Assembly (NCBI GenBank): GCA_964412635.1
Contig: CAYPPQ010000002.1
Location: 1-62,854 of the forward strand
Direction: 5' to 3'
DNA length: 62,854 nt
Origin: an uncultured Planctomycetia bacterium
Lineage (GTDB): Bacteria; Planctomycetota; UBA8108; UBA1146
This document shows positions 1 through 34,859 of the stretch, piece by piece (positions within the stretch are counted from its first letter, which is position 1; each line of letters begins with the position of its first letter). The notes below the pieces were generated by a model. That model saw nothing but the letters and a program-made list of their open reading frames with translations, had not been told where the DNA came from and did no database searches. The position numbers and the translations under genes are program-made.

Positions 1-1
1 G

Positions 2-3000
2 CTGAAGCGAGCGGTCACAGAGGTCACTCACTCCGATAACGCCGACAAGATCGCAGTGATGGCCCAAAACAGCAGGGCCCGATTCCAGACTGAAGATCCC
101 CATCGAATCAGCATCATCGCCGCAGATACCTCCGAAGCAGCGGGACGTCTGCAGCAGGCGATCGATGGCATCGAGGCGGAGTCCTCCCCACGCTGGAGCC
201 TTCCGACAGGCATCGATCGGAATCATGGGCCCCGGCGCGGATCGCTCGCCATCCTGTTCCCCGGACAGGGCTCCCAGAAACTCGACATGCTGAGACCGAT
301 CGCCTGTCGCTTTCCGGAGATGATGGCGGTTCTCGATGACGCAGAAGGTGTCTTCTGGAGCCAACAGGAGGATCGTGGCCTGGCACGCTACATCTACCCA
401 CCTCGAAGCTGGAACGATACGATCCAGCAGCAACAGGACCAGTTGCGGATGACCGACATCGCACAACCCGCACTGGGGGCGGTGAGCCTCGGTCTCTACC
501 GGACCCTCAACAGGTTTGGTGTCACCGGCGACATCTTTGGAGGACACTCCTTCGGCGAACTCACTGCACTGGCTGCCGCAGGCAGGCTCGGCGATGCAGA
601 CTTCCATCAACTTGCCAACTTCCGTGGCCGATTGATGGCGAGAGCAGGCGGTCCCGATGCAGGTTCGATGCTCGCAGTCGCACTTCCGCTGAGCGAACTG
701 GAACGATTCGTCGCGCAGAATTGCCCGGACCTGGTCATCGCCAATCGTAATGCTCCACAGCAGGCGGTACTGTCCGGTACCGATGCGTCGATTCATCTGG
801 CAATGAACGTTCTGGAACAGCAGAGCATTCGCCATCGAAAGTTGCCGGTGGCTGCAGCTTTCCACTCTCCCGAGGTCGCTTCCGCGGCGGTCCCCTTTCA
901 AGAGGTTCTGGAGAGAGCGAGAATTCACCACTCGGCAGTACCGGTCTTCGCCAACAGCAGTGGCGGTGAGTACCCCTCGGATGAGTCTGAAGCGCGCCAG
1001 TTGCTGGCAAATCAGATTGCTCGACCGGTACAGTTCCTGGAGATGATCGAGGGGATGCTTCGTCGTGGGGCTGGCACCTTCCTCGAAGTCGGACCAGGGC
1101 AGGTACTGACAGGGCTCGTCGATGCCATCATCAAGGATTGCTCGTCAGATGCTTGTGCCTTCTCGATCGATCAGTCGAAACCGGATGGATCCGATCTCGC
1201 CCGTGCCATCGGCCGCCTGGCGGTGGAAGGTCATGAGGTCGATTTACGGGGCTGGGATCCCCACGTCCGTGAGGCTGACAACGCGATGGTGGTGATGATC
1301 GGTGGAGCCAATCTTCGACGGGAGCAAGCGCCAGCGGACGCTCCATCGGTGGCAGCTCCTGCTCCCGTCAAGGACAGCGTCGAGAGCGTAACTTCGCCGC
1401 TGCCCCGGGAGACGACACCGGCCTTGCAACGATCGCAGGAAGCGCTGATGGATGCCATCGAGAGTGCTCTGGAGATGCAGAAGAATCTCGCCGATGCGCA
1501 GAGTGCCGCAGAAAAGGTACTCGAATCGTCACTGGAAGATGTAAAGGCATCCGCGCACATCCCGGAGCCGAGGGAACTTCCCCTTGCCCCCGTCGTCGAA
1601 GAGGTCGCCTCGACCTCGGCGGAACTCCCCTCTCCATCGCAACCGTCCGGCCAGGCAGATGTGGAAATCGCAGCACTTTCTGCCGATCTCATCGAGGTGA
1701 TCGCCAGCAAGACAGGCTACCCGGCCACTGCCATAGGGACTCAACTCGATCTCGAGAGTGATCTGGGCATCGATAGCATCAAGCGGGTCGAAATCCTCTC
1801 TGCATTGCGAGAACGGCGACCCGATCTACAGGCGATCCCCCCCGAGATGCTCGGCACACTGCGAAGCATCGAGGAGATCGCCGGATGGTATGGCAACAGC
1901 AGCGAGCACACTTCCACGCCAGCTGAAGAGGTCGATCGAACCGCGCTGATGGAGGAACTACCGCCACCTGAGGAGGATCGAGATCCACTGCAACCAGTGA
2001 TCTGCCAGGTGGTCGCCGACAAGACCGGCTACCCCGTCGAGGCGATCGGATCGAACCTGGATCTTGAAGCGGATCTCGGCATCGACAGCATCAAGAGGGT
2101 GGAGATCCTCTCGGCTCTTCGAGAAGTACGCCCCGATCTCGACACCATTCCCCCCGAGATGCTGGGAACTCTGCGAACCATCGATTCCATCGTCGACTGG
2201 TATCAACAATCCTCACCAACTCCGGTTGCACAGGTCGAGAGTGATGCGAGCCCACTGCCTCGAGAAAGCGAGAGCACCGTGGATGCACCGGCTGCAGAAT
2301 CGGAGATGGAGTCGGTCACCCTCCTCGATCAGCAGATCGTCCAGGTAGTGGCTGACAAGACCGGCTATCCCGCCGAGGCGATCGGTAGTGATCTCGACCT
2401 GGAAGCGGATCTCGGTATCGACAGCATCAAGCGGGTCGAAATCCTCTCGGCATTGCGCGAAGGACGACCCGATCTGCCTACGATACCACCCGAGTTACTT
2501 GGCACCCTTCGTACCATCGACGCCATCGTCGCCTGGTTGATCGACTCCACGAGTACTGCAACCACGAAATCGCCAACGACTCCGACAGCGACCGATGATC
2601 TTGCACCTGCGACCACCATCGAAGATTCAGTTCACGAAGTTCCGTCACCAATCGTATCTCCGTCATCGCATCCTCAATCGCACGATTCGCAGCCTGTGGT
2701 GCTGCTCGAGGCGGAAGCGGTGGCACTGCCTGAAGGTGATTTCGTAGCGTCAGTTCCGTCAGCCGATACCGATTTCCCGTGGCAGATCGTCTGCGACGAC
2801 ACCGCTCTGGCATCGGAACTGGTCCAGAATCTCACCTCGAGGGGATTCACCAGCAATCATCTGCCGCTCGGGAACATCGAGGAGCCGTTCCCCAACATCT
2901 CAGACCGCAACATCTCGGGACTGATCATCATCATCGATGATCGATCCGCCACAGATGCTGCGGTGGCCAGTGCATTCCGCTGGCTGCGCGAATCTCGACA

Positions 3001-5158
3001 ACATCTTCAGCGATCGGAAACGGGCCAGACTCCTCGTGTCGCTCTGGTCCAGAGATTCGACGGACACTTCGGTCTCGGCAGTTCCTCTGTCACAACGGGA
3101 TCAGGGGATCCAGCGATGGCTGGAATTGCGGGTCTGGCGAAGTGTGCAGCCCGGGAGTGGCCGCAGATCGAGGTTCGATCGATCGATCTGTCGCCAACCA
3201 TCCCATCACCGAAGCAGGCCGCCTCGCTGCTGATCAGTGAACTGCTGGGAGGACAGGGCATCGAGGTGGGGCTGGCACCGGAGGGAAGAGTCGTCGTTCA
3301 ACTGAGGACCTCCCCCACTCGTGAACAGTTGTTTCCGCTGGTGCGCCCGGACGGACTGGTGGTGATCACCGGAGGAGCAAGAGGTGTGACTGCTGCCTGC
3401 GTCACCGAACTGGCTCACCGCTATCGCCCACCTCTTCTGCTTCTGGGCAGGACTCCAGCTCCCGGAAGCGAGCCGGATTGGGCTCGAGAGATTGCCGACG
3501 ATCAGCTGGAACAGCACCTCTTCCAGCGTCAACAGCCAGGACATACCCCGGCAAGCATCCGCAAGAAAGCCCAACTCATCCGCCAGAGTCGTGGCGTTGC
3601 AGCCGCCATCGAAGAACTGGAAGCGATCGGCTGTCGCGTCCTCTATCGATCTGTCGATGTGCGCGATCGAAGCGCGCTCGAGAAGGCCATCGAAGAGGCC
3701 CGAGGTCAACACGGCCCGGTGCGAGGGATCATGCACGGCGCAGGAGTCCTCGCCGATCACTGGATCGAGGACAAGAGCGACGAAGAATTTGCCCGGGTGT
3801 GGAGTACCAAGGTCGACCCTGCCCGCCATCTGATGGACATCTGCCGTCATGAAGAACTCGATTTCATCTCGTTCTTCTCATCGACCACGGCTCGCCTCGG
3901 TCGCAAGGGCCAGATCGATTACGCTGCTGCCAATGAATTCCTCAATCGTCTCGCCACCCTCGAGGCAGCACGACGTCCTGGGTGCCGCGTCCGTAGCATC
4001 GGATGGGGTCCCTGGGCTGGTGGCATGGTCGACGAGGGGCTACGCGATCTGTTCCATGCGGAGGGTATCGAACTGATCCCCCTGCGAGAGGGAGCGAAGC
4101 TATTTGTCGACAAGATGGAATCGGCCTTGCCACCACAGTGCATCGTCGTGGCTCCACTCGATCCAGACGACACCGATCTCGATCGATTCACCACCGATGA
4201 TCAACTCATCTCCTTCGCACCCGTTCCGATGCCACAGCAGAAGAAGTCGGACACACCCCAATCCTCTCCGCCGATCGATGCCACCGAGGTGGTCAGCGCA
4301 GGGGTGAAGGAAGTGCTGGAGACGGTCCAGACGATGCGACTCTCCACCTCCTCCATCCCGGCACTGAAGGATCATGTACTCGATGGAAGAGCAGTGGTTC
4401 CCGCCGCATTCCTTCTCGAGTGGTGTGCAGGTGCAGCGATCCACCGACATCCTGGTCTCGAGTTGCACGGTGTCGATCAGTTCAGGATTCTCAAGGGGAT
4501 CATTCTCGAGTCTCTCGAGGAGCGAGAGATCGTGCTGGCCACCGGCACACCTCGATCAGAGGGGTCACTGTTGAGGGTACCGGTACAGATCCAGGCAACC
4601 GGAGATGGAGGTCGTCTTCACGCCCGATCGGAGGTTTTGCTGGGGGTGCGACAGCCAGCTCGATCGGTGCTGGACTCGCCTCGCTATCAGGAAAATTGTG
4701 CTCCCGATTACTCCACCGATCTCTTCCATGGACCCAGTTTCCGCTCGATTCAGATGGTGTCTCCCATCGAATCGGACAGCATTTCCATCCGCTCGTCGGC
4801 TGCACCGACCATCAGCGAGTGGATCTCGGATACACACCATGCGCAGTGGATCATCGACCCGCTGCGAATCGATGCCGCCTTCCAGGCATTGATCCTGTGG
4901 TCCACTCATGCACATCAACAGCCATGCTTACCCTGTGCCATCTCCAGCCTGAGAGTGCACCAGCCCCTCGATTCGGGATTGCTGGAGACGCGAATTCGCA
5001 TCGACTGGCGAGAGGGATCTCTCGCCCGTGCCAGGGCCGAGATCCTCAATCGCTCCGGTTCCCCTGCCATCACCCTGGAAGGAATCGAAGTGGTCATCGA
5101 TGAATCACTGAGAAGTGCATTCCGCCGTGACCGGTTGACGGAAGAAGCCCACCCTTGA
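2..5158 (+). CDS. pfaA: PfaA-type iterative PKS/PUFA synthase subunit, 5'-truncated (MAT - 3xACP - KR - DH; KS presumably upstream of the window)
   Basis: The frame of ORF 56..5158 is open back to base 2, so the gene begins before the window. Motifs: MAT LFPGQGSQ, GHSFGE, AAFHS; three LGIDSIKRVEILS ACP cores; KR ITGGARGVT and DYAAAN; PKS-type DH HVLDGRAVVP and DAAFQ. Confidence 0.93.
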   Translation: MKRAVTEVTHSDNADKIAVMAQNSRARFQTEDPHRISIIAADTSEAAGRLQQAIDGIEAESSPRWSLPTGIDRNHGPRRGSLAILFPGQGSQKLDMLRPIACRFPEMMAVLDDAEGVFWSQQEDRGLARYIYPPRSWNDTIQQQQDQLRMTDIAQPALGAVSLGLYRTLNRFGVTGDIFGGHSFGELTALAAAGRLGDADFHQLANFRGRLMARAGGPDAGSMLAVALPLSELERFVAQNCPDLVIANRNAPQQAVLSGTDASIHLAMNVLEQQSIRHRKLPVAAAFHSPEVASAAVPFQEVLERARIHHSAVPVFANSSGGEYPSDESEARQLLANQIARPVQFLEMIEGMLRRGAGTFLEVGPGQVLTGLVDAIIKDCSSDACAFSIDQSKPDGSDLARAIGRLAVEGHEVDLRGWDPHVREADNAMVVMIGGANLRREQAPADAPSVAAPAPVKDSVESVTSPLPRETTPALQRSQEALMDAIESALEMQKNLADAQSAAEKVLESSLEDVKASAHIPEPRELPLAPVVEEVASTSAELPSPSQPSGQADVEIAALSADLIEVIASKTGYPATAIGTQLDLESDLGIDSIKRVEILSALRERRPDLQAIPPEMLGTLRSIEEIAGWYGNSSEHTSTPAEEVDRTALMEELPPPEEDRDPLQPVICQVVADKTGYPVEAIGSNLDLEADLGIDSIKRVEILSALREVRPDLDTIPPEMLGTLRTIDSIVDWYQQSSPTPVAQVESDASPLPRESESTVDAPAAESEMESVTLLDQQIVQVVADKTGYPAEAIGSDLDLEADLGIDSIKRVEILSALREGRPDLPTIPPELLGTLRTIDAIVAWLIDSTSTATTKSPTTPTATDDLAPATTIEDSVHEVPSPIVSPSSHPQSHDSQPVVLLEAEAVALPEGDFVASVPSADTDFPWQIVCDDTALASELVQNLTSRGFTSNHLPLGNIEEPFPNISDRNISGLIIIIDDRSATDAAVASAFRWLRESRQHLQRSETGQTPRVALVQRFDGHFGLGSSSVTTGSGDPAMAGIAGLAKCAAREWPQIEVRSIDLSPTIPSPKQAASLLISELLGGQGIEVGLAPEGRVVVQLRTSPTREQLFPLVRPDGLVVITGGARGVTAACVTELAHRYRPPLLLLGRTPAPGSEPDWAREIADDQLEQHLFQRQQPGHTPASIRKKAQLIRQSRGVAAAIEELEAIGCRVLYRSVDVRDRSALEKAIEEARGQHGPVRGIMHGAGVLADHWIEDKSDEEFARVWSTKVDPARHLMDICRHEELDFISFFSSTTARLGRKGQIDYAAANEFLNRLATLEAARRPGCRVRSIGWGPWAGGMVDEGLRDLFHAEGIELIPLREGAKLFVDKMESALPPQCIVVAPLDPDDTDLDRFTTDDQLISFAPVPMPQQKKSDTPQSSPPIDATEVVSAGVKEVLETVQTMRLSTSSIPALKDHVLDGRAVVPAAFLLEWCAGAAIHRHPGLELHGVDQFRILKGIILESLEEREIVLATGTPRSEGSLLRVPVQIQATGDGGRLHARSEVLLGVRQPARSVLDSPRYQENCAPDYSTDLFHGPSFRSIQMVSPIESDSISIRSSAAPTISEWISDTHHAQWIIDPLRIDAAFQALILWSTHAHQQPCLPCAISSLRVHQPLDSGLLETRIRIDWREGSLARARAEILNRSGSPAITLEGIEVVIDESLRSAFRRDRLTEEAHP
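1688..2540 (+). repeat. Three tandem near-identical ACP-coding repeats inside pfaA (about 1690-1890, 1995-2200, 2335-2540)
   Basis: Three copies of V(I/V)A(S/D)KTGYPxxAIGxxLDLE(S/A)DLGIDSIKRVEILSALRExRPDL, separated by Pro/Ser/Glu-rich linkers. Boundaries are approximate. Confidence 0.92.
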
Positions 5159-8100
5159 AAGCTGTGGCAGTTGTCGGATACGGCTTGCGATATCCGGAGG
5201 CTCCAGATCCGGATTCCTTCTGGAACGTGATCCGCAACGGGCGAGACACTTCCAGGCAGGTACCTGACGATCGCTGGACCCTGAACCGAACCGAGGCTCT
5301 CGGGGGTGCCCAGCCTGAATCGGATCGAGTCAGGTCAGACCGGGGTTGTTTCATCGACCCCCCGGAGGGCCCCCTCGGCTTCTTCGACCCGGAACTTGCC
5401 AGTGCCATCGATCCCTCGGCGCGACTTGCCGTGATCGCCGGAGTCGAAGCAGCAAGGAAACACCTCGATGTCCTCGATCGCGACAGGACCAGCGTGATTC
5501 TCGGGCAGTTGCTCTTACCCACCGATTCTTACTCCGCCATGGCGGAGGCGATCATCGGGGACACCCTGGAAGAACTGGTCCTCGATTCACAGGGTAGAGA
5601 AGATCGACGTCCACGGGGAACTGCTCGCTGTCATCCACTCGATCGGTTCGACGCAGCCCTGCCAGCAGCTGCACTTCAGCGAGCACTGCAGCTACGCGGT
5701 GGTGCTTATACCCTCGATGCCGCCTGCGCATCCTCTCTCTATGCCATCGCCCAGGCGTGTCGCGACCTCGATTCCGGTCGTTGCGATGCAGCCCTGGCAG
5801 GAGGAGTCTCTCGACCCGATTGCCTCTTTACCCAGATGGGGTTTTCACAGCTCAAGGCTCTCTCTCCAGAGGGACGATGCCGACCCTTCGACAGCAGAGG
5901 ACAGGGACTCATCGTCGGTGAAGGCGCGGGAGTTCTGCTCCTGAAACGCCTCGAAGATGCGGACCGGGATGGTGACACCGTACTCGGCGTGATTCGTGGT
6001 ATCGGTCTCTCCAATGACATGGCGGGTGGTTTGCTGGCCCCTTCCGGTGAGGGACAACTGCGGGCGATGCGCAGCGCATACGCAGATGCTGGATGGACCC
6101 CCGATCAGGTCGACTACATCGAGTGCCATGCCACCGGTACCCCGGTCGGCGATGCCACCGAACTGAGAAGTTTGATGCAACTGTGGGAAGGCCCTTCCTG
6201 GCGACCTGGACAGTGTGCCATCGGATCGGTGAAGGCCAATATCGGGCACACCCTCACCGCCGCCGGCGCTGCTGGAATCATCAAGGTGTTGCTTGCGATG
6301 GATCGCGAGGAGATCCCGTGTCACCCCGACCACCAATCGCCCCCCGAGGGGATCGAACTGGACTCTTCCCCCTTCCGGATTCCACGGCAGCCACAGGCGT
6401 GGTTGCGTCGCTCCGGTGCACCGAGGCGCGCCGCCGTGAGCGCATTCGGATTCGGAGGCATCAACGCCCACCTGCTGGTGGAAGAGGCGGTGAAACCCAC
6501 GACCCCTACCATCTCGGTCAGTACACCGGTAACGACTCCATCACCGATCGCCATCGTCGGAATCGGTGCCATCGCCGGTCGCCATCACCACCTTCATCAG
6601 GTGGCTCCTGCACTTCTTGGACAACCGATCGACAGCCCACCGCAACCACTGCCCGGTGACCTGGGAATCCCCGGAGCCCGCTGGGTCAAGGAACGACAGC
6701 TGGACTTCACCGGTGGAGAGAGTTGCGGAAGGCTGAGGGCATCCCCCGTCGAACTTCGAATTCCACCCACCGAGTTGAATGAGATGCTTCCGCAGCAGCT
6801 GGCACTACTGGACGTGGCACGAGAAGCGATTGCCGGTGCAAGGCTGGCTGACCTCGGTGAACGAGGTGGACTCTTCGTGGGACTGGGACTCGATCCTCGC
6901 AGTAGTTTCTTCCACCTGCGCTGGATGATGCCCGATCGTGCCCGACACTGGCTGCGTGAACTTGGAATCGATGCCGATCCAGATGAAGTGGACGAATGGA
7001 TCGAGCTTCTTCGTGATGAGACGGGCCCGCCACTCGATGCCAACAGGGTGATGGGTGCCCTCGGCAGCATCGCAGCGAGTCGCATCGCACGGGACCTGAA
7101 TGCCGGAGGCCCGGCACACACCGTCAGTTCTGAAGATTCATCGGGATATCGAGCGGTGGAGATGGCGGTCAGGGCATTGCAGGATGGCGTCGTCGACGTG
7201 GCGCTGGCTGCCTCCGCTGACCTGGGACTGGATATCCTCTCCCGCACCCTCGATGCCAACGAGTTCCTTCCCCCTCACACCGAATCTGCCGTGGCCTTCG
7301 TCCTCAAACGACTCGCTGATGTGACCGATGTCGATGGTCCGATCATCGCCACGATCGATGGGCTGGGCAGCGCATCCGGTGGCAACCTGGCGGCAGAGGA
7401 GTTTTCCTCCTCGATCAGGGAAACAGCTCGACTGAAGGCGCTTCGAGACGCTTCCATCACCGGCGACTGCATCGATCTCTTCTGCAACGACGAAATCAAC
7501 AGTCGCACTGGAGAACTGGCAGGGCGCCCCGGCTGGAAGGTGACCCTTCCCGCAACACTGGCCTCCTCCGGCTGCAGTTCCTTCCTGCTATCGATGCTCC
7601 AGGGAATCTGCGCAGCACACTGGAGCGTGCTCCCCGCTGATGATCAGCAGCCCCCGGTTCCATGGGTCCCCGATCGATCCGACCGAAGACGGATCCTCGT
7701 GGAAAACAGCGGAAGGCTCGGCGATTGCGGGGCGATGGTGATCTCTGCTGAAGAGCTGGTTCCCCGCCTCGAGACCGACGAGAAACCCCAGCTACGCTGC
7801 TGTGGGGAACCAACCCATGGTGTCATCAGTCTGGAAGGTGCCGATCCCCGTTCCATCGAATCCCTCGCCGATGAACTCTCCGAGATGCTTCCCTCATCTG
7901 CTGCAAGCAGTGCTTCCCTTGCCCGACAGTGGTTGGAGAATCATCCAAGGCTTCCACACGCTGCACGAGCAGTCACCATCGTCTTCAAGTCTCAAGATCA
8001 ACTGCCTGCGGCGATCGATTCGATACCAGCCTTGTTGCGTGGCAATGCAATCGAACTGAAGGGCCCAGGCTGGGAGATACACCGCTCGTCTGATCCCCCC

Positions 8101-11100: not shown

Positions 11101-11913
11101 CTCGAGATCGCACTCCAGCCCTGTGGTTGGCTGGCTGCCTACATCGGTTCTGCACTCACCGATGATGGTCCATTACAGTTCAGAAACCTCGGTGGAGATG
11201 GTCAGCAACTGAAAGCGATCGATCGAAGTACTGGATTGCTCACCACCGAGGTCAAGTTGACAAAGGCGGATTTCGCCGCCGGGATGTGGATCCAGCACTT
11301 CGATCTCGAGGTCCGGGATTCGACCGGGCCCATCTACAGTGGAACCACCTACTTCGGCTTCTTCCCACCGGAAGCACTGGCTCAACAGGTTGGTTTGCCC
11401 GGGGCAGTGGCCAGGACCATTCCACCTCGTGAAGCTCTGGCAGGAAAAGCGTTCCAGGTTCCGGTGCGAGATGATGGTCCCCGGCCCTCCTTCCGCATGG
11501 TCGAGGATGTCGAGTTCTACGCCCCACAGGGTGGGACGGCAGGCCTCGGTTTCATCCGTGGTGGAATCGACGTCAACCGAGATGCCTGGTTCTTCCGTGC
11601 CCATTTCCATGGTGATCCGGTGTGGCCCGGTAGCCTTGGACTGGAGTCGATGCTCCAGCTCCTGCAGGTGGTCGCCCGCGAACGATGGGGAGAGGGGTCC
11701 TGGCTGCCGAGAACTCTCGCTGTCGGTGTTCCCCATCGTTGGACTTATCGCGGGCAGGTGATCCCCGACCGCAAGAGGGTGGTGGTGGAAGCCAACATCA
11801 AGGAAGAAGATCCAGAGCGAGGAATCTTGCTGGCAGACGGGATGTTGCTCGTCGATGACCTGCCCATCTACTCGATGGAAGATTTCTCCGTACAGAAGAG
11901 GGAACTTCGATGA
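5155..11913 (+). CDS. pfaC: Fused PfaB/PfaC-type PUFA synthase subunit (KS - CLF - AT - two FabA-like DH didomains)
   Basis: KS triad DAACASS, ECHATGT, NIGHT. The second KS-like domain lacks the Cys (VSSEDSS), so it is a chain-length factor. AT GHSLGE. FabA-type DH motifs CHFSDDPVMPG and AHFHGDPVWPG. The TTG start overlaps the pfaA TGA (TTGA at 5155-5158). Confidence 0.92.
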   Translation: MKAVAVVGYGLRYPEAPDPDSFWNVIRNGRDTSRQVPDDRWTLNRTEALGGAQPESDRVRSDRGCFIDPPEGPLGFFDPELASAIDPSARLAVIAGVEAARKHLDVLDRDRTSVILGQLLLPTDSYSAMAEAIIGDTLEELVLDSQGREDRRPRGTARCHPLDRFDAALPAAALQRALQLRGGAYTLDAACASSLYAIAQACRDLDSGRCDAALAGGVSRPDCLFTQMGFSQLKALSPEGRCRPFDSRGQGLIVGEGAGVLLLKRLEDADRDGDTVLGVIRGIGLSNDMAGGLLAPSGEGQLRAMRSAYADAGWTPDQVDYIECHATGTPVGDATELRSLMQLWEGPSWRPGQCAIGSVKANIGHTLTAAGAAGIIKVLLAMDREEIPCHPDHQSPPEGIELDSSPFRIPRQPQAWLRRSGAPRRAAVSAFGFGGINAHLLVEEAVKPTTPTISVSTPVTTPSPIAIVGIGAIAGRHHHLHQVAPALLGQPIDSPPQPLPGDLGIPGARWVKERQLDFTGGESCGRLRASPVELRIPPTELNEMLPQQLALLDVAREAIAGARLADLGERGGLFVGLGLDPRSSFFHLRWMMPDRARHWLRELGIDADPDEVDEWIELLRDETGPPLDANRVMGALGSIAASRIARDLNAGGPAHTVSSEDSSGYRAVEMAVRALQDGVVDVALAASADLGLDILSRTLDANEFLPPHTESAVAFVLKRLADVTDVDGPIIATIDGLGSASGGNLAAEEFSSSIRETARLKALRDASITGDCIDLFCNDEINSRTGELAGRPGWKVTLPATLASSGCSSFLLSMLQGICAAHWSVLPADDQQPPVPWVPDRSDRRRILVENSGRLGDCGAMVISAEELVPRLETDEKPQLRCCGEPTHGVISLEGADPRSIESLADELSEMLPSSAASSASLARQWLENHPRLPHAARAVTIVFKSQDQLPAAIDSIPALLRGNAIELKGPGWEIHRSSDPPLGYSGDVTFLYPGSGSLYPGAGARLLARYPGATDHGARTSGDLSRWLGTPDCWRPDAPLPRDPRDAILAQVNLGCIGSDLLFGCGIVPQRAVGHSLGETTMLFALRAWRDRIPMQLRLEDDDLFSHWLAGEHRAAARAWNLPVGSRAPWGAAVIDAPAEEIKAAIEEHPRIYLLVVNAVTESVIGGDPQQVEMLCQERGWTPIWLHGVTSVHCPLVSQVASRYRELHHWPVHLPYRGVILHSTATGEELPVDSDAIADSLLKQATEGFHFPHLLQKLWKSGSRIFIETGPGASCSRLARKALAGLPQRTLPLFWRGEDEELSLARILAVCIAERVAVDLPAFLGTSSHSATSIDSLEIEDGRHSMIVPPLPATRPITAIPPLHPRSVPSRETAAVSTETAPQRDQSMVSPTIEPIPEAAVASPTTRMSLQGRLHRARQLRSELSARWKGDVQQPTESVGHIEIEPLQHETEVIDPPLIDRDQCLEFARGRVGPVLGPDHAAADHFPSRVRLPDEPLMLVDRILELEGEPLSLGPGRIVTAHDILPDAWYLDAGRIPTCIAVEAGQADLFLSAYLGADLHTRGLSVYRLLDAQVIFHDELPGAGNTIIYDIHIDEFFRQDKTLLFRFHFEGSVDGVPLISMRDGCAGFFSEEELASGRGIVHAPHRPRAKAISPAGWNPPAGTDHRRLADHAVDALRKGDLAGAYGSRFSRLDLRSPARLPGGKMRLLDEVTSLEPCGGDWGLGRVVAELAIHPDDWFLTCHFSDDPVMPGTLMYECCLHTLRTLLGAWGWVGEDDEVIPMPVTGIPGRLRCRGQVLPETARVSYDVQVKEIGFEPEPYVITDATMLADGRPIVEMEGMSLRLVGLTRQRIEQIWTSGAEITEVASSEEQRSIPESAAGGGGDAPAIGSQLATLYDHQQILEFATGRPSRAFGDRYLPFDEDRFIARLPGPPYCFLDRIVDVKGTPWVIEPGAACTAEYHAPQDAWYFDAGGQGEMPFAVLLEIALQPCGWLAAYIGSALTDDGPLQFRNLGGDGQQLKAIDRSTGLLTTEVKLTKADFAAGMWIQHFDLEVRDSTGPIYSGTTYFGFFPPEALAQQVGLPGAVARTIPPREALAGKAFQVPVRDDGPRPSFRMVEDVEFYAPQGGTAGLGFIRGGIDVNRDAWFFRAHFHGDPVWPGSLGLESMLQLLQVVARERWGEGSWLPRTLAVGVPHRWTYRGQVIPDRKRVVVEANIKEEDPERGILLADGMLLVDDLPIYSMEDFSVQKRELR

Positions 11914-12983
11914 CACCTACCAGACCCGACGCTGGATACGATGTTCATCTCGCTGCCATCGGCATCGAGATGGCACCGGTGGTGGTGACGAGCGATGAGA
12001 TCGAAACAAGACTGGCCCCCGCATGGAGTTCGATGGGGATCGCCCCGGGTCAGCTGGAACAACTGACCGGTGTTCGGGAGAGAAGATGGTGGCCCGAAGG
12101 TACCAGTATCTCCGAGATGTCTGCACGTGCCTGCCGGGTAGCGCTGGAGCGTGCAAACCTGGACCTCGAATCCATCGACCAGTTGACCTACACCGGTGTC
12201 TGCAGGGAGTCCTTCGAGCCTGCCACCGCCGCTGCCGTCGCTGCTCATCTCGAATTGCCACGGGATGTGCAGTTGCATGACATCTCGAATGCATGCCTTG
12301 GAGCCATGGACGGAATCGTACTGGCGGCCGATGCGATTCGACTGGGTCGGATCGACACGGCTCTGGTTGTGTGCTGTGAAAGTGCCCGGGACATCGTGAA
12401 GATTGCAGAGCAACGATTACTCGAGGAACCGACGATGGAACGATTTATTCCGTCCCTCGCCACTCTTACCGGAGGGTCGGGTGCAGCGGCGCTGCTACTG
12501 GTCTCGTCGAGAATCTCCAGCGACGGTCCCCGCTACCTGGGAAGCACCCAGGGTACCGATGCGCGCTGGTTCGACCTGTGTCGCTGGGGAGTGCGACGTG
12601 ACGAGGAGAGTGAAGATCTGGCGGCCCGCATCGAATACATGGAGACGGACTCGGTGGCGGTACTGCGTCACGGCGTCGAACTGGGTATTCGCACCTGGAA
12701 TCGCTTCCTGAGTCAACTGGACACCTCTCCTGCGGAGATTCACCGGACCATCTGCCACCAGGTAGGATCCTCCCACCGCGACGAAATCCTCCCCTCCCTC
12801 GGCCTGTCGGCGGATAACGATTTCATCTCGTACCCATTTCTGGGCAACATGGGTACTGTATCGATCCCGATGACCGCTGCCATCGCTGAGGAACGAGGCT
12901 TCCTGTCAGCACAGCAGCGAGTGGCTTTTCTTGGAATCGGTAGTGGCCTGGTCTGTCGGATGATCGGTTGGGAGTGGCGATGA
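11910..12983 (+). CDS. oleA: OleA thiolase-fold head-to-head acyl condensing enzyme
   Basis: GVRERRWW, ESFEPATA (catalytic Glu region), ISNACLG (Cys), ICHQVG (His), LGNMG (Asn), GIGSG. ATGA overlap with pfaC; followed by oleBCD. Confidence 0.9.
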   Translation: MTPTRPDAGYDVHLAAIGIEMAPVVVTSDEIETRLAPAWSSMGIAPGQLEQLTGVRERRWWPEGTSISEMSARACRVALERANLDLESIDQLTYTGVCRESFEPATAAAVAAHLELPRDVQLHDISNACLGAMDGIVLAADAIRLGRIDTALVVCCESARDIVKIAEQRLLEEPTMERFIPSLATLTGGSGAAALLLVSSRISSDGPRYLGSTQGTDARWFDLCRWGVRRDEESEDLAARIEYMETDSVAVLRHGVELGIRTWNRFLSQLDTSPAEIHRTICHQVGSSHRDEILPSLGLSADNDFISYPFLGNMGTVSIPMTAAIAEERGFLSAQQRVAFLGIGSGLVCRMIGWEWR

Positions 12984-13897
12984 CCCGTCTATTCGTCGAT
13001 GAGGAATTTCCGTTCAAGAGTCACTGGTATGACCGAGGTGAAGGTCATCGAATGCACTACATCGATGAAGGCGAGGGAGATCCCATCGTCTGTGTCCACG
13101 GGAACCCGACCTGGTCCTTCTTTTTTCGGCACCTGATCACCAGGATGTCGAGATCGAACAGGGTCATCGCAATCGACCACATCGGTTGCGGATTTTCCGA
13201 CAAGCCCTCGGCGCAGAACTATAACTATCGGCTCGCCAACAGAATCGATGATCTTGAAGGATTACTCGACCATCTCGACATTCGATCGGGAGCGACCCTT
13301 GTCGCACACGACTGGGGAGGAGCCATCGGATTCGGTGCCGCCGGACGCAATCCCGACAGATTCTCCTCGCTGGTGGCGATGAACACGGCAGCATTTTCAT
13401 TGCCCGCTGGAAAACCGTTTCCGTGGATCATCCGTCCCGCTCGTAGTTTTCTCGGCGAGTTCCTGGTCAGAGGTCTCGATGCATTTGTACTGGGAACCCT
13501 GTTCATCGGGACCAGCCGTCGCAAACTGTCCCGGGCAGATCGTGCCGGCTACAGGGCGCCATACAACAACTGGAACAACAGACTGGCGGTGCACCGTTTC
13601 GTGGAAGACATTCCGCTGCAACCAGGGGATCCATCGTGGGATACCCTCGCTGAAGTGGAGGCGGGTCTCGCTGCACTCTCCGAGCATCCCCTGCTACTCC
13701 TGTGGGGATCCCGAGATCCCGTCTTCGACGTCGACTTCCTGAAGGAGTGGCGCCGACGCTTTCCGACAGCTCACTGGCGTGAGTGGAGTGATTGCAGCCA
13801 CCTGCTCCTCGACGATGCCCCCGAGGAAGTGATCACGGAGATTCGTAACTTCCGGGAATCGGTCGCCAGAAAAAAGGTGAGCCGATGCCTGCTGTGA
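12980..13897 (+). CDS. oleB: OleB alpha/beta-hydrolase (beta-lactone decarboxylase, haloalkane-dehalogenase-like)
   Basis: HGNPTWSF, HDWGG (Asp nucleophile), C-terminal SHLL. The likely start is ATG 12980, which overlaps the oleA stop as ATGA; the ORF track starts at 12968. Confidence 0.9.
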   Translation: MTRLFVDEEFPFKSHWYDRGEGHRMHYIDEGEGDPIVCVHGNPTWSFFFRHLITRMSRSNRVIAIDHIGCGFSDKPSAQNYNYRLANRIDDLEGLLDHLDIRSGATLVAHDWGGAIGFGAAGRNPDRFSSLVAMNTAAFSLPAGKPFPWIIRPARSFLGEFLVRGLDAFVLGTLFIGTSRRKLSRADRAGYRAPYNNWNNRLAVHRFVEDIPLQPGDPSWDTLAEVEAGLAALSEHPLLLLWGSRDPVFDVDFLKEWRRRFPTAHWREWSDCSHLLLDDAPEEVITEIRNFRESVARKKVSRCLL

Positions 13898-15531
13898 TCG
13901 AATCCAATTCTCCAGCGATCGGAGTCGCCAGTCGGCTACGTACCCAGGCAAGAGAAAGACCGCATCAAGTTGCCGTGTGGGAACTCCAGCATCGGAACTG
14001 GCAAAAACGCACATTTCGGGAACTCGACCAGCTGGTCGACCGAACCTGCCATGCTCTTGTCCGTGCCGGCATCACCCGGGGGATGCGCACCGTATTGATG
14101 ATTCCTCCGGGGAGAGAATTCCTCGTCTGCACATTTGCCTTGATGCGAATCGGAGCTCCACCGGTGCTGGTCGATCCTGGAATGGGAATCGCTGGATTGG
14201 GACGCTGTCTCGGTCGCGCGAATCCGCAGGCCTTCATCGGTGTGCCCAGGGCTCACCGTGCTCGAGTACTCCTGCGCTGGGCATCATCATCCGTGAAGCA
14301 TCGAATCAGTGTCGGAAACGGCTGGATCCCACCATTTACCCGTAGACTGGAAAGACTGAGAGACGAGGAGGAGATGAACGTCCCCTTCACCGAGCCGGTC
14401 CTCGAGAGCGATGAAACCGCCGCGATCCTGTTCACGTCGGGGAGTACCGGTCCCGCCAAGGGCTCCATCTCTCATCAACGATTGATCGAGACCCAGGTCG
14501 ACTGGATCGCCAGGATTCATGGCATCGAGGCGGGAGAAGTTGACCTTCCCACCTTTCCCCTATTCGGTCTCTTCAGTGTCGCTCTGGGGATGACCTCGGT
14601 GGTACCCCGGATGGACTTCACTCGCCCCGCAGAAGCAGATCCTCAACACCTCCTCGATCTGATCGATAGATTCGAAGTGACCAGCCTCTTCGCCTCCCCT
14701 GCCCTGCTCGGAAACCTGTCGAGATACCTCCGTGAAAACTCGAGATCGATGTCGGGATTGAGGAGGATCATCAGCGCCGGCGCACCGGCCCGGCATGAGG
14801 AGATCGAACAACTGCTCCCCTCTCTCTCGGCACAGACACGGGTCGAAACTCCCTACGGCGCGACCGAAGCGATGCCACTGTGTTGCATCGGACATCAGGA
14901 GTTCCTCGACTCTCGTCGGGAGACCGACCTCGGCGCCGGTATCTGCGTCGGATCGGTGGTGCAAGGGGTTCAGATTCGAATCTGCCCGGAGGCCACCCCC
15001 CCACGACCCAGTTCCTGCGTCGCTGATGGAGAGGCCGGTGAAATCTGGGCCAGCGGAGATATCGTTTCCAGGAGTTACTTCGATGACTCCGTTGCAAATG
15101 AGATACACAAGTTCATCGACAGCGATGGAACTCACTGGCATCGCACAGGTGACCTCGGGAATTTCGACTCCACCGGTCGAATCTGGTTTCGAGGGCGCAA
15201 CAGCCAGGTGGTTCGCACCGCCTCTGGTGATCTGCACACCGTGGCCATCGAAAGGGTATTCGACGTCCATCCTTCGGTTCGACGCAGCGCACTGGTAGGA
15301 AGAGGAAAGAAGGGTCAACAGGTGCCAATCCTGTGCATCGAGAAGGCACCCTCCTCACCCATCGATGAGGCCCAGTTGATCAGGGAGTTGAAGAAGATCG
15401 GCAGCACGGTGAAGGGTGCCGATCAGATCGATCACTTCTTCTTTCCAGGCCCCTTCCCCGTCGACATTCGCCACAACGCCAAGATCGATCGGGAAGCCCT
15501 TGGAATCTCCGCAGGTGAGGTGTTTCGATGA
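13885..15531 (+). CDS. oleC: OleC AMP-dependent ligase (beta-lactone synthetase)
   Basis: LFTSGSTGPAKG, PYGATE, HRTGDLG, FPVDIRHNAKIDR. Overlaps the oleB end by 13 nt. Confidence 0.9.
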   Translation: MPAVIESNSPAIGVASRLRTQARERPHQVAVWELQHRNWQKRTFRELDQLVDRTCHALVRAGITRGMRTVLMIPPGREFLVCTFALMRIGAPPVLVDPGMGIAGLGRCLGRANPQAFIGVPRAHRARVLLRWASSSVKHRISVGNGWIPPFTRRLERLRDEEEMNVPFTEPVLESDETAAILFTSGSTGPAKGSISHQRLIETQVDWIARIHGIEAGEVDLPTFPLFGLFSVALGMTSVVPRMDFTRPAEADPQHLLDLIDRFEVTSLFASPALLGNLSRYLRENSRSMSGLRRIISAGAPARHEEIEQLLPSLSAQTRVETPYGATEAMPLCCIGHQEFLDSRRETDLGAGICVGSVVQGVQIRICPEATPPRPSSCVADGEAGEIWASGDIVSRSYFDDSVANEIHKFIDSDGTHWHRTGDLGNFDSTGRIWFRGRNSQVVRTASGDLHTVAIERVFDVHPSVRRSALVGRGKKGQQVPILCIEKAPSSPIDEAQLIRELKKIGSTVKGADQIDHFFFPGPFPVDIRHNAKIDREALGISAGEVFR

Positions 15532-16532
15532 AAATACTCGTCACCGGTGCAGGTGGATTCATCGGAGGAGTCCTCGCCACAAGACTGAAGAGCCTTGGGC
15601 ACGACATCATCACCCTTCAGCGAGGTGATTATCCTGCTCTGGAGACTGCTGGAATCGAGACGATTCGGGGTGATCTGACAGACCTTGCGACGGTTCAACG
15701 CGCCGCCAACGGTTGTGACGTCGTGTTTCATGTCGCAGCGCTGGCAGCTGTCTGGGGACCCGCCATCGATTTCCACCGTACCAATGTGATCGGCACCCGA
15801 AAAGTCAACCACGCCTGCCCCCTCGAGGGGCTGACACGAATCATCTACACCTCCACTCCCAGTCTCGTCTTAGACGGACACGATCAGGAGGGTATCGATG
15901 AGAAGACCCCTTATCCTGATAAGTTTCTCGCTCATTACCCCAGGACCAAGGCGATGGCAGAGAGAGAAGTCCTGGCGGCAAATGACACACAACTGTCGAC
16001 AGTTGCTCTCAGACCTCATCTGGTGTGGGGACCTGGAGATCGTCACCTGATCCCCAGGATCGCCGAGAGGGCCTGTGCGGGAACCCTGCGCTGGATCGAT
16101 CGGCCAGGTGTTCTCATCGATGCGACCTACATCGAGAATGCCATCGATGCTCATATCGCCGCCATGCAAGCACTTTTGACCAGTAAGGCATGTTGTGGGA
16201 AGGTGTATTTCATATCTAACGGAGAACCGACTCCACCCCGTGAACTGATCTCGGGTATCTTGTCGTCATTGAATATCCGGGATCAGTTTCCGTCGATTTC
16301 TCCAGGTTTGGCCTACGGAGTGGCTACCTTGCTGGAATGGATTCATAAGATCCCTGGAGTCCACGGGGAACCGTCACTCACTCGATTCAGCGCACGGCAG
16401 TTATCAACCAGTCACTGGTTTGATCTCTCCGCTGCGAAAAATGACCTGCACTGGGTGCCCAGGGTAACGACAGCAGAGGGAATAGAACAACTATGCAAGA
16501 ACCATTACCACGCTGCATCTCAGACGACATGA
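15528..16532 (+). CDS. oleD: OleD NAD(P)-dependent 2-alkyl-3-oxoalkanoate reductase (3-beta-HSD-like extended SDR)
   Basis: GAGGFIG, YTSTPS, YPRTK (YxxxK), LRPHLVWGPGD. ATGA overlap with oleC. Confidence 0.9.
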   Translation: MKILVTGAGGFIGGVLATRLKSLGHDIITLQRGDYPALETAGIETIRGDLTDLATVQRAANGCDVVFHVAALAAVWGPAIDFHRTNVIGTRKVNHACPLEGLTRIIYTSTPSLVLDGHDQEGIDEKTPYPDKFLAHYPRTKAMAEREVLAANDTQLSTVALRPHLVWGPGDRHLIPRIAERACAGTLRWIDRPGVLIDATYIENAIDAHIAAMQALLTSKACCGKVYFISNGEPTPPRELISGILSSLNIRDQFPSISPGLAYGVATLLEWIHKIPGVHGEPSLTRFSARQLSTSHWFDLSAAKNDLHWVPRVTTAEGIEQLCKNHYHAASQTT

Positions 16533-17254
16533 CCGTCGCCTCTCAGTTGAGCACACAAACCATCGACATCTGGCCCTTCCGCCTCGATGAATCGCCAAAT
16601 CGAATAGAGATGCTGACGGAGTGGCTCCCTCCACATGAAAAAACGATGCAATACCGTGGCGTCGTTCCCGAGATCGGCATCCGAGCGTCAGTCGCCCGTG
16701 CTGGCCTGCGCAGGATCCTCTCGCGCTACCTCGGGAAGGCCCCCAGTGCTCTGAACTTCGAAATCGGAGATCACGGGAAGCCTGGCCTCGGTTCGGAACC
16801 GATTTCCTTCAACCTGGCACACTCTGCTTCTCTTGCCATCGTCGTGGTTACCCTGGAGAACCGTATCGGCGTCGACCTGGAGTTGATCAGAGACTCCATC
16901 GCTGTCGATCAACTGGCAGTCCGCTGCTTCAGTGCAGGCGAACTGGAGCGATGGAAGAAACTCCCGGATTCTGAAAAGCTCCAGGTATTCTTCGATATCT
17001 GGACGAGAAAAGAAGCCTTCCTCAAGGCACTAGGCGACGGAATGTCGAAAGCGATGAACAGCATCGAGTGCGATCTTGAATCGGACTCTGGTTCTGGTTT
17101 GATCTCCATGAGTTACCCCGGCGAAACCCCAGAGAACTGGAATACCATCACGAAACTGATCGGTGGGCAAGCGCGGTACGCCATCTGCTGTGAAGGTCGC
17201 GATCACGTCACAACTCTCCGAGACTCTCGGGAAATTGGGCTCAATCGATGGTGA
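16529..17254 (+). CDS. pfaE: Sfp-type 4'-phosphopantetheinyl transferase (PfaE-like)
   Basis: FNLAHS, IGVDLE, WTRKEAFLKALG. The likely start is ATG 16529, overlapping the oleD stop as ATGA. Confidence 0.88.
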   Translation: MTVASQLSTQTIDIWPFRLDESPNRIEMLTEWLPPHEKTMQYRGVVPEIGIRASVARAGLRRILSRYLGKAPSALNFEIGDHGKPGLGSEPISFNLAHSASLAIVVVTLENRIGVDLELIRDSIAVDQLAVRCFSAGELERWKKLPDSEKLQVFFDIWTRKEAFLKALGDGMSKAMNSIECDLESDSGSGLISMSYPGETPENWNTITKLIGGQARYAICCEGRDHVTTLRDSREIGLNRW

Positions 17255-19058
17255 TGGTGAGGGTCCCTGAGCCGTACTCCAGCGATCCCCACCCTCCGAT
17301 GCGAATCAGATAACTCGCTCCTTCACTGACCAGTACATTCGATAATTCTGATGTGAAATTCGCACACCCGTCCCCATCTCCATTGCAGCCGATCTGAATC
17401 ATCGATCTACAGAAGCCCTCGTATACAACGATGTCGGAATCAAAAGAGACCTGGTCACAGAGTGAAAAGGTAGCCTGGCCACTGGCCGGGGCGACAAAAC
17501 TCAGCCAGATATCCTGCTCAACATCTCCGAGTAGTGAATCGGAGCACTGCCCTACGGTGAAGAGATCGGTAGAAGTGGTCATGCTGGTGGTGTCGAAGAT
17601 GGTATCTCCCATGCCGACAAGCGGAGCAGACTCACATTCATCTCCTTGAGTGTTTGCGTAACATGCTGGATCGGTACAGGGAACTGCGCATGGGAGAGAA
17701 TCAGCAGTTGGATCGATTCCAGGAAGAGGAAATGGAGGTGCAGGTTGTGGGCCAGCGATGAACAAAAAGGAGAGCAATGAAATCGCATCTCCAAGATCAA
17801 GAGAGCCGCTATCGTCGTGATCCGCAGCAGATGCACACGGTATCTCGCCCCCCAGGAACAGGTACTGAAGTGTGATCACTCCATCGGAGAGATCGAGTTG
17901 CCCATCTGAAGTTGTATCACCCCGTATGAAGACGACGGAGGGGTCCGGTGGTTCGATATCGACCTGACACGTAGCTGGCTGGCTGTCTTGTGAGCCCAGA
18001 GAACCGATCACTCCGTATTCAATCAGGCCTTCGAGGCCGATCCCGCTGTCGAGGTAACTGCTCGCAGTACCCGCTATCGTGGCAAGTGGATCCCCATCCC
18101 TCGTGATCATGATTACCTGGTAAGGAAGTGTGTTTTGCCAGCCGAGAAGAACACCGGAGCCGCTCTGGATACACGATATGCCAGCAGGTTGTTCAACGGC
18201 TCCGTCGATGGCCACCGTGCATTCCGTTGCCACTGATGGAGTCGTTCCTGAGACACCTCGGATACGGTAGTGAGCTTCCGAAGGGATGAGCAATCCCGAA
18301 TCCTCGAAGAGTTCCGTGGAACCCGCGACTTCACCGATGATCACTCCGTCTCTTTCGATCTGAACGGAATCGTAGGCACCTCCATCTTGCCACGAGAGAT
18401 ATGCAGTTCCGGCAGCTTCAGCACAGGTAAAGGCGATCGGCGGCGGCACATCACTGATCGTCAGCGTCAGCGTGTTTGAAATGGTAGGAAGCACCTCGCC
18501 AGCGGGGTCGGTGGTCAACGGTCCTAGCCAGCCGCACGCAAGATCGGGAACAGGTGCAGTGAGGACCGATTCGCCAGTCGTGGCAAAACTGTTCACTCTC
18601 ATGTGTAGGATTGCCAGCGTTGCTGAACTCCCGGTGAACTCACCATCGAGAACCAGACCGAGACTGAAGGCCTCGGTTCCCTGTCCATCCCACCACTGTG
18701 TACAACCGATGTCCCCACCGGGCCCCGCCGGCGGAGGGGCATTCCACGCCATCGCCAAGATGGGAGGGGCGGACGGAATCGCATCGGGGAGAGTCACGGA
18801 AAGTAACTGGAGAGTCGCTGCATCCCAGGAGATGACATGTTGAATCCCCTGGATAGACATCTGATCCAGATTCTCGAGGGAAATTTCCACATCGAACAGA
18901 TCGCCTGGCGCTTGAACGGAATCACTGGTCGATGTGCTCAGTCCAACCTGCTGCGCCTGTGCCACGACCGATGTGATCGCTAGCGATGACATCAAGATTG
19001 CGATCGCCATGACACCACTGTGCGTGGTAACTGACTTCATCCACAAGAACTTGTTCAT
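17241..19058 (-). CDS. Secreted multidomain protein: cohesin-like domain, two Ig/Fn3-like modules, dockerin-like (FIRGD) module, C-terminal Cys-containing beta-sandwich
   Basis: Signal-like N-terminus (MAIAILMSSLAITSVVAQA). Two repeats of xxCxxxxxxxxLxWQxxxxYxxxxIxRDG. Paired EF-hand-like loops FIRGDTTSDGQLDLSDG and AADHDDSGSLDLGDAI. The start is uncertain (19085, 19058 or later). Confidence 0.72.
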   Translation of the reverse strand: MNKFLWMKSVTTHSGVMAIAILMSSLAITSVVAQAQQVGLSTSTSDSVQAPGDLFDVEISLENLDQMSIQGIQHVISWDAATLQLLSVTLPDAIPSAPPILAMAWNAPPPAGPGGDIGCTQWWDGQGTEAFSLGLVLDGEFTGSSATLAILHMRVNSFATTGESVLTAPVPDLACGWLGPLTTDPAGEVLPTISNTLTLTISDVPPPIAFTCAEAAGTAYLSWQDGGAYDSVQIERDGVIIGEVAGSTELFEDSGLLIPSEAHYRIRGVSGTTPSVATECTVAIDGAVEQPAGISCIQSGSGVLLGWQNTLPYQVIMITRDGDPLATIAGTASSYLDSGIGLEGLIEYGVIGSLGSQDSQPATCQVDIEPPDPSVVFIRGDTTSDGQLDLSDGVITLQYLFLGGEIPCASAADHDDSGSLDLGDAISLLSFLFIAGPQPAPPFPLPGIDPTADSLPCAVPCTDPACYANTQGDECESAPLVGMGDTIFDTTSMTTSTDLFTVGQCSDSLLGDVEQDIWLSFVAPASGQATFSLCDQVSFDSDIVVYEGFCRSMIQIGCNGDGDGCANFTSELSNVLVSEGASYLIRIGGWGSLEYGSGTLTITID

Positions 19059-19180
19059 GGTGTACTCCCAGCCGGGAACTGACATCGATTCAGACTCCCG
19101 AATTCCCGGTATCTATCCCTGGATTCAAGGATATCACTGCCGGGAGTGTGTGCGAGATCCAGCGATCGAGATGACCTGGA

Positions 19181-34847: not shown

Positions 34848-34859
34848 GGTGGTCGCCCC

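Follow-up and report, generated by a model that had tools for sequence, protein, structure and literature searches.

The locus poses the question of what is made by a polyunsaturated fatty acid (Pfa) synthase whose genes run directly into a set of olefin (ole) genes. The window, which is the whole 62,854-nucleotide stretch of DNA from an uncultured Planctomycetia bacterium that was analysed, contains seven such genes on the + strand at positions 2-17254. They encode the C-terminal part of PfaA (2..5158), a PfaB/C fusion (5155..11913), OleA (11910..12983), OleB (12980..13897), OleC (13885..15531), OleD (15528..16532), and an Sfp-type 4'-phosphopantetheinyl transferase (PPTase, 16529..17254). 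We conclude, with a probability of about 0.8, that they belong to one operon, pfaD-pfaA-pfaBC-oleABCD-pfaE, whose most likely product is a polyunsaturated olefin of very long chain length, probably hentriacontanonaene (C31:9). A preliminary description of the sequence had assigned the same gene identities, which were borne out by Pfam, NCBIfam, and motifs, and the catalytic motifs that it had called intact could all be located.

The cluster is cut by the left edge of the window. The KS domain of PfaA and the enoyl reductase gene pfaD lie upstream and were read from a metagenome contig locus, L007, which is 99.8 % identical to the window across 21.9 kb. This upstream context came from an exact-sequence look-up of the window OleA; exact-sequence look-ups with the window PfaBC and OleD gave no match. 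In L007, pfaD is positioned directly upstream of pfaA, and the two genes share an ATGA junction. The L007 PfaD scores 568 bits on TIGR02814 (cut-off 449), and the full-length PfaA scores 1394.7 bits on TIGR02813 (omega_3_PfaA), above the cut-off of 1010.1, which the window fragment misses with 778.8 bits because it is truncated. The full gene order is pfaD-pfaA-pfaBC-oleA-oleB-oleC-oleD-pfaE, spanning about 22 kb, the first about 4.8 kb of which are outside the window. The extent of the cluster given in the preliminary description was thus correct for the seven genes of the window but not complete, since pfaD is also part of the operon.

The synthase has a Type I layout. The 3' 5.2 kb of pfaA (2..5158) encode the C-terminal 1718 of about 2220 residues, as identified by Pfam, NCBIfam, and motifs. 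This part contains a MAT domain with the motif GHSFG (nt 542-556), three tandem ACPs with LGIDS motifs (nt 1763, 2075, and 2411), a KR domain (aa 1118-1339), and a PS-DH domain with the motif HxxxGxxxxP (nt 4373-4402). With the KS read in L007 and the remainder in the window, PfaA has the KS-MAT-tandem ACP-KR-DH architecture of Type I clusters. The 2252-residue PfaBC (5155..11913) has the domain order KS-CLF-AT-DH-DH, which is based on Pfam, NCBIfam, motifs, and gene calls in relatives. Pfam detects ketoacyl-synt twice and FabA twice. The Cys, His, and His residues of the KS are present in the motifs DAACASS (nt 5716-5736), HATGT, and NIGH, and the CLF lacks the active-site Cys. The AT, with the motif GHSLG (nt 8377-8391, aa 1075), follows the CLF and precedes the two FabA-type DH domains, both of which retain the His motif HFxxDPVxPG (nt 10381-10410 and 11602-11631). 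TIGR02816 (pfaB_fam) matches residues 987-1280 with 57 bits, under its whole-protein cut-off of 144. PfaBC therefore carries the fusion of the pfaB acyltransferase into pfaC that is the hallmark of Type I, as well as the KS-CLF and two FabA-type dehydratase/isomerase domains of a Type I PfaC.

The four ole genes are contiguous and co-oriented, and their arrangement is kept in relatives. OleA (357 aa, 11910..12983) belongs to the thiolase-fold head-to-head Claisen condensing enzymes. Its Cys129 (NACLG), His283 (CHQVG), Asn313 (LGNMGT), and the Glu of CRESFEPAT are invariant in alignment A1. The protein scores 391.7 bits on NCBIfam PRK09258 (cut-off 285) and 92.7 bits on the best FabH-type (KAS III) model. 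Its best PDB matches are structures of OleA from Xanthomonas campestris (3ROW, 3S21, and others; E 6e-47), followed by the next family at 6e-14. The Cys-His-Asn triad with a Glu base and these scores place it nearer to OleA than to FabH. OleB (305 aa, 12980..13897) is an alpha/beta-hydrolase of the haloalkane-dehalogenase type, a putative beta-lactone decarboxylase, with the Asp nucleophile in HDWGG (nt 13307-13321) and the C-terminal His in CSH (nt 13793-13801). In both PDB and NCBIfam it matches haloalkane dehalogenases best, with scores under their cut-offs, as is usual for OleB. The OleC protein (548 aa, 13885..15531) is a member of the ANL superfamily of AMP-dependent ligases, a putative olefin beta-lactone synthetase, with the motifs TSGSTGPAKG, YGATE, and TGD. 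It passes PRK09274 (571 bits, cut-off 478), and its best specific matches, NF045786 (483 bits) and NF045785 (463 bits), remain under narrow cut-offs of 900 and 850. OleD (334 aa, 15528..16532) is an NAD(P)H-dependent extended SDR, a putative 2-alkyl-3-oxoalkanoate reductase, with the motifs GAGGFIG (GxxGxxG) and YPRTK (YxxxK) and the Pfam domains 3Beta_HSD and Epimerase; NF042422 (375 bits) and NF042423 (359 bits) are its top matches, under their cut-off of 580. The NCBIfam equivalog models whose cut-offs OleC and OleD miss are narrow ones from Xanthomonas and Shewanella. The last gene of the cluster (16529..17254) encodes a pfaE-like PPTase of the Sfp/HetI type with 241 residues, or 253 from ATG 16493. 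It contains PF01648 and the motifs GVDLE and WTRKEAFLK, and its best NCBIfam match is HetI with 129 bits, under the equivalog cut-off.

The junctions listed in the preliminary description agree with the sequence. The overlaps are TTGA for pfaA/pfaBC (5155-5158), ATGA for pfaBC/oleA (11910-11913) and oleA/oleB (12980-12983), 13 nt for oleB/oleC (13885-13897), and ATGA for oleC/oleD (15528-15531) and oleD/PPTase (16529-16532). Three of the starts are ambiguous. The pfaBC gene may start at TTG 5155, which gives the TTGA overlap, or at GTG 5164, and each was picked by different gene callers; for oleC, both ATG 13885 and GTG 13894 are possible starts, the latter producing a GTGA overlap; and the PPTase gene was called from both ATG 16529 and ATG 16493. 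Neighbouring genes abut or overlap under every alternative start. We considered the overlaps as an unusual feature and rejected this, since 4-nt overlaps are frequent at other same-strand junctions of the window (39324-39327, 47372-47375, 48619-48622, 52936-52939, and 54480-54483). Because such overlaps are common in the genome, those described here mark an operon and are nothing special. The pfa-ole genes are probably co-transcribed and translationally coupled. A scan of positions 1-19500 for sigma-70-like promoters identified no site, and terminator-like sites in the same region were at background level without excess; both scans are uninformative for a planctomycete. Read mapping of three metatranscriptomes and searches of RNA runs gave no read or contig matching the locus. 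The convergent neighbour orf614 was rejected as a member of the cluster; its product is secreted and without a lipid-related domain, and its synteny is confined to the marine clade described below.

The arrangement is widely conserved. Our survey covered the 80 loci with the best OleA matches among species-representative genomes, with the testable loci as denominators. A PfaC-like gene is located directly upstream of oleA on the same strand in 58 of 67 loci, oleBCD follow oleA in 49 of 62, and a PPTase is present in 35 of 57. The related OleA loci cover at least eight phyla. Those without pfaC upstream include L016, L019, L027, L051, L056, L064, L071, and L080. Genomes of Isosphaeraceae and Schlesneria (L033, L060, L075, and L074) contain PfaA-PfaBC-OleABCD in the same order, and the Geobacteraceae loci L079, L081, and L087 share the gene order of the window. 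The window OleA belongs to a clade of nine marine Planctomycetota species (100/100 support) with a long stem of 0.87 changes per site, and this lineage has been recovered in many seawater metagenomes. OleA of the clade shares only about 50 % identity with its counterparts in known C31:9 producers and with all other OleAs, OleB is 60-77 % identical within the clade, and PfaBC is 37-59 % identical to relatives outside it. All junctions in the clade are short overlaps; in the eight relatives they measure 4 nt, apart from a single overlap of 19 nt in L015, and in the window one measures 13 nt.

Based on characterised families, the following pathway can be proposed. The PPTase would prime the three ACPs of PfaA. 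The iterative Pfa-type synthase, with KS, MAT, three ACPs, KR, and DH in PfaA, KS-CLF, AT, and two FabA-type DH domains in PfaBC, and the ER of PfaD, would assemble a methylene-interrupted polyenoyl chain from malonyl units. The Shewanella counterpart of this chain is 16:4(n-3) (PMC6463001, PMC4882568). OleA would join two polyenoyl chains head-to-head into a 2-alkyl-3-keto acid, which OleD would reduce with NADPH. OleC would close the OleD product into a beta-lactone using ATP, and OleB would decarboxylate the lactone to a cis-olefin that presumably partitions into the membrane. The proposal of the preliminary description that a Pfa synthase feeds OleABCD to give a polyene hydrocarbon is supported by the gene order and C31:9 production of Geobacter bemidjiensis (PMC4882568), by the suggestion of Shulse and Allen that Type I pfa-like clusters are a source of olefin precursors, with ole genes "often linked" (PMC3098273), and by n-C31:9 being "often present in planctomycetes" and characteristic of Gemmataceae (PMC6995999, PMC7397252). 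We infer both the length of the chain and that the synthase is "dedicated", serving the hydrocarbon route alone.

The length or unsaturation of the chain could differ, given the long OleA stem and about 50 % identity. The rival that survives best keeps the same pathway and assumes a polyunsaturated olefin or ketone that deviates from C31:9 in one of these properties, which is possible, although we find it unlikely. The well-supported stem of the marine OleA clade and the divergence of both OleA and PfaBC are in its favour, and sequence alone does not reveal chain length. However, the products determined for Pfa-linked Ole systems, in Shewanella, G. bemidjiensis, and several planctomycete families, are all C31:9 (PMC3098273, PMC4882568, PMC7397252, PMC6995999), and the domain set of the window is the same as theirs. 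We speculate, more tentatively still, that the polyene hydrocarbon of the marine clade may not be C31:9, or that the polyenoyl chain may be handed from the PfaA ACPs directly to OleA without a thioesterase or CoA step. Such a hand-off would be compatible with an operon whose eight genes all overlap and include none for a thioesterase. If either is true, the clade would represent an unrecognised source of a polyunsaturated hydrocarbon biomarker in the water column.

It is rather improbable that the Pfa synthase mainly supplies EPA- or DHA-like fatty acids to phospholipids, with OleABCD siphoning off a shorter intermediate. Such dual use is established in Shewanella and Photobacterium, where one Pfa synthase yields EPA or DHA together with the 16:4 precursor of C31:9 (PMC6463001, PMC4882568), and the full-length PfaA passes the omega_3_PfaA model. 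Since the Shewanella synthase serves both EPA and hydrocarbon, that of the window may not be exclusively dedicated. The operon and the 45 kb downstream, however, contain neither an AGPAT domain nor a PfaT-type thioesterase, and the junction of PfaBC with oleA is kept in most related loci. The published fatty-acid tables of cultured planctomycetes that contain C31:9 list no polyunsaturated fatty acids, neither EPA nor DHA (PMC7397252, PMC6995999).

A beta-lactone end product, the alternative raised in the preliminary description, would require OleB to be inactive or to have another role. OleA, OleC, and OleD are indeed the common core of beta-lactone pathways, but such products were assigned to oleACD clusters characteristically lacking oleB (PMC7064751). 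The oleB gene of the window overlaps both its neighbours, its product retains the Asp and His residues, and it is conserved in the clade. We reject this end product as very improbable because OleB is intact. An equally poor explanation is that the adjacency is coincidental, with OleABCD acting on ordinary FAS II acyl-CoAs, as the Ole systems of Xanthomonas and Micrococcus do with fatty acyl-CoAs (PMC7064751), and the pfa genes making an unrelated lipid; a few related OleA loci do lack pfaC upstream, but same-strand adjacency recurs across the surveyed phyla, start and stop codons overlap in the marine clade, and oleD is followed by the gene of a PPTase that would serve the PfaA ACPs.

With the probable synthesis of a C31:9-type olefin by one pfa-ole operon, an uncultured lineage of marine planctomycetes joins the organisms for which such polyunsaturated hydrocarbons are predicted. 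The pfaD-A-BC-oleABCD-pfaE cassette is widely kept as one unit, in at least eight phyla, which is useful for annotation and for reading long-chain polyene hydrocarbons in marine particulate matter. Linked pfa-ole clusters are, as had been pointed out, already known (PMC3098273, PMC4882568).

Comparison with known systems defines the place of the operon among them. The biochemically and structurally characterised OleABCD of X. campestris shares the OleA fold, the Cys, His, Asn, and Glu residues, and the four-step pathway proposed here. It differs in drawing on FAS II acyl-CoAs, in lacking a Pfa synthase, and in its neighbouring genes (PMC7064751). Shewanella oneidensis MR-1 possesses both enzyme systems, pfaEABCD and oleABCD, and its Pfa synthase is genetically required for C31:9, which is built from 16:4(n-3) (PMC3098273, PMC6463001, PMC4882568). 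There, however, the pfa and ole loci are separate, pfaB is a gene of its own, the order is pfaEABCD, and the synthase also makes EPA. In Photobacterium, pfa and ole genes are physically linked as in the window (PMC6463001), but they are split into two operons, separated by a gene for a hot-dog thioesterase, whereas the window has one overlapping operon without a thioesterase. Cultured planctomycetes with n-C31:9 (Gemmataceae and Lacipirellula parvula), and Gemmata obscuriglobus with its Type I cluster, belong to the same phylum, among whose cultured members the hydrocarbon routinely serves as a chemotaxonomic lipid. The window comes from a different, uncultured marine clade, which comprises nine species-level genomes and whose OleA has a long stem. 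The closest counterpart is Geobacter (Citrifermentans) bemidjiensis Bem, a C31:9 producer whose pfaD, A, B, C, oleA, B, C, D, and pfaE genes follow one another in tandem (PMC4882568), corresponding to the Type I secondary lipid synthase of Shulse and Allen (PMC3098273). The operon of the window matches this published layout: the genes come in an identical order, with the PPTase gene following oleD, and they encode an identical set of domains, among them an AT that is fused into PfaC. The window differs in its origin (Planctomycetota of the marine water column), in protein sequence (OleA about 50 % and PfaBC about 42-52 % identical), and in junctions that all overlap, whereas Geobacteraceae loci often have intergenic gaps. 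The operon is an ordinary copy of this described gene cluster and represents no new mechanism or kind of system.

Seven co-directional ORFs occupy positions 2–17254 of the forward strand of the window. The first (2–5158), open at the window edge, encodes the C-terminal 1718 residues of PfaA, with a malonyl-acyltransferase (GHSFG), three tandem ACPs (each with LGIDS), KR and PKS-type DH domains. The second, pfaBC (5155–11913), encodes a 2252-residue PfaB/C fusion containing a KS (motifs DAACASS, HATGT and NIGH), a CLF that lacks the active-site Cys, an AT bearing GHSLG, and a pair of FabA-type dehydratase/isomerase domains, both of which carry HFxxDPVxPG. The ORFs called as oleA (11910–12983), oleB (12980–13897), oleC (13885–15531) and oleD (15528–16532) precede the final gene, pfaE (16529–17254), which encodes an Sfp/HetI-type PPTase. 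The junction of pfaA with pfaBC reads TTGA, oleB and oleC overlap by 13 nt, and the other four junctions are ATGA, all in full agreement with the preliminary description, whose observation of pfa, oleABCD and PPTase genes with overlapping junctions is confirmed by ORFs, domains and motifs. Alternative starts exist for pfaBC (GTG 5164), oleC (GTG 13894, giving a GTGA overlap) and the PPTase (ATG 16493), and public gene callers place two of these three differently; with any choice of starts, neighbouring genes overlap or sit a few bases apart. Other parts of the window also have frequent four-nucleotide overlaps (those at 39324, 47372, 48619, 52936 and 54480 are examples); such overlaps point to a compact operon without being unusual by themselves. 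RNA runs searched for the pfa–ole locus gave no match.

One metagenome contig that carries the identical OleA protein, L007, matches the window at 99.8% identity across 21.9 kb and reaches 4.8 kb further upstream. It supplies the PfaA KS absent from the window, and the full-length PfaA of 2220 residues scores 1394.7 bits on TIGR02813 (cut-off 1010). The gene upstream of pfaA is pfaD, encoding an enoyl reductase that scores 568 bits on TIGR02814 (cut-off 449); its stop overlaps the pfaA start in ATGA, and 189 nt of non-coding sequence lie 5' of it. Therefore, the unit is pfaD-pfaA-pfaBC-oleA-oleB-oleC-oleD-pfaE; it comprises eight genes in about 22 kb, and all seven junctions between them are overlaps. 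On the 3' side, a gene encoding a secreted protein runs towards pfaE, and the stops of the two genes overlap by 14 nt; aconitase and then unrelated housekeeping genes follow. This convergent 614-residue ORF (17241–19085, reverse strand) has an N-terminal signal/TM segment, no match in Pfam or NCBIfam, and two DxDxSGxLDLxD repeats that appear dockerin-like by eye. Each of the eight relatives in the marine clade (L008–L015, 44–57% identity) has both the ORF and its overlap, which do not recur outside the clade.

Elsewhere, the window encodes a stand-alone 537-residue ketoacyl-synthase-like protein (59069–60682, forward strand), not linked to the operon, whose first ~257 residues have no Pfam match. 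A molybdopterin oxidoreductase (948 residues) adjoins a single 509-residue ORF in which a 4Fe-4S dicluster protein is fused to an NrfD-type membrane subunit (32001–36389, reverse strand), and the two genes of an AddB/AddA-like nuclease-helicase pair (36484–42440, forward strand; PD-(D/E)XK, and UvrD helicase plus PD-(D/E)XK) overlap in ATGA.

OleA scores 391.7 bits on NCBIfam PRK09258 (cut-off 285), and its closest solved structures are those of Xanthomonas campestris OleA (E 6e-47), with FabH well behind (6e-14). Its relatives keep Cys129, His283, Asn313 and the Glu in CRESFEPAT without exception. The best specific matches of OleC and OleD are the Xanthomonas/Shewanella equivalogs, with scores under those narrow cut-offs; the general motifs of both are intact.

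Based on these protein families, a pathway can be proposed. The PPTase would prime the PfaA ACPs, the Pfa synthase would provide a polyenoyl chain, and OleA would join two chains by condensation. The keto acid would be reduced by OleD and converted to a beta-lactone by OleC, which OleB would decarboxylate to a cis-olefin. The product is probably a Pfa-fed long-chain polyunsaturated olefin (probability about 0.8), and the earlier interpretation of a Pfa synthase feeding OleABCD to make a polyene hydrocarbon is supported. We somewhat favour C31:9 (hentriacontanonaene) as the specific product: n-C31:9 is reported to characterise Gemmataceae and to be "often present in planctomycetes" (PMC7397252, PMC6995999). 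An olefin of another chain length, formed by the same pathway, is unlikely. Less likely still is one synthase serving both PUFA and hydrocarbon production; neither the operon nor the 45 kb downstream of it contains a thioesterase or an acyltransferase that would load phospholipids, and the fatty-acid tables in which n-C31:9 makes up 2–3% of lipids are without EPA or DHA (PMC7397252, PMC6995999). That the pathway ends at the beta-lactone is very improbable: the clusters producing beta-lactones are those without oleB (PMC7064751), and the OleB here, a hydrolase resembling haloalkane dehalogenases, has both HDWGG and the C-terminal His.

An OleA alignment was used to scan one genome per species, and all eight proteins were then searched by tblastn on the 80 best loci. 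Among these, oleA is immediately preceded by a co-oriented PfaC-like gene in 58 of the 67 loci with enough upstream sequence, and a merely coincidental adjacency of pfa and ole is highly unlikely, even with a minority of OleA genes lacking it. Downstream of oleA, oleB, oleC and oleD are present in 49 of 62 loci, and a PPTase follows oleD in 35 of 57. Carriers include Planctomycetota (among them Isosphaeraceae, Schlesneria, Phycisphaerae and Uabimicrobium), Geobacteraceae, Desulfuromonadales, gammaproteobacterial MAGs, Verrucomicrobiota, Elusimicrobiota, Acidobacteriota, Gemmatimonadota and Sumerlaeota. The OleA relatives point to uncultured marine Planctomycetota as host, and the identical protein occurs on contigs of at least 23 marine metagenome assemblies. 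In the OleA tree the window belongs to a nine-species clade of marine Planctomycetota that has full support and a long stem (0.87 changes per site). Every junction in this clade is a short overlap, 4 nt throughout the eight relatives except for one of 19 nt (L015), and with a single 13-nt overlap in the window; intergenic gaps or insertions are often present in other lineages.

No PfaC-like gene lies within 8–10 kb upstream in L016, L019, L051, L056, L080, L064, L071 and L027. These loci hold a minority of the closely related OleA genes and come from some Phycisphaeraceae, Schlesneria and Desulfuromonadales; therefore, the pfa–ole linkage has been broken several times, and the tree requires at least nine changes. 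Gammaproteobacterial pfa–ole loci contain extra DNA between oleA and oleB (about 1.3 kb in L031, L037 and L041, 4 kb in L047 and 8.6 kb in L044). Their OleA and that of Phycisphaeraceae share an insertion of ~45 residues (399 versus ~350 residues; OleA protein alignment A1).

Both the pfa–ole arrangement and the product it probably makes have been described before, including within Planctomycetota. Geobacter bemidjiensis, a C31:9 producer, has pfaD, A, B, C, oleA, B, C, D and pfaE in this same tandem order (PMC4882568). The Type I cluster of Shulse and Allen (2011, PMC3098273), found in Deltaproteobacteria and Gemmata, has a pfaBC fusion, is frequently linked to ole genes, and was proposed as the source of olefin precursors. 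Photobacterium profundum has adjacent pfa and ole operons, with a 16:4(n-3) precursor (Allemann et al. 2019, PMC6463001).
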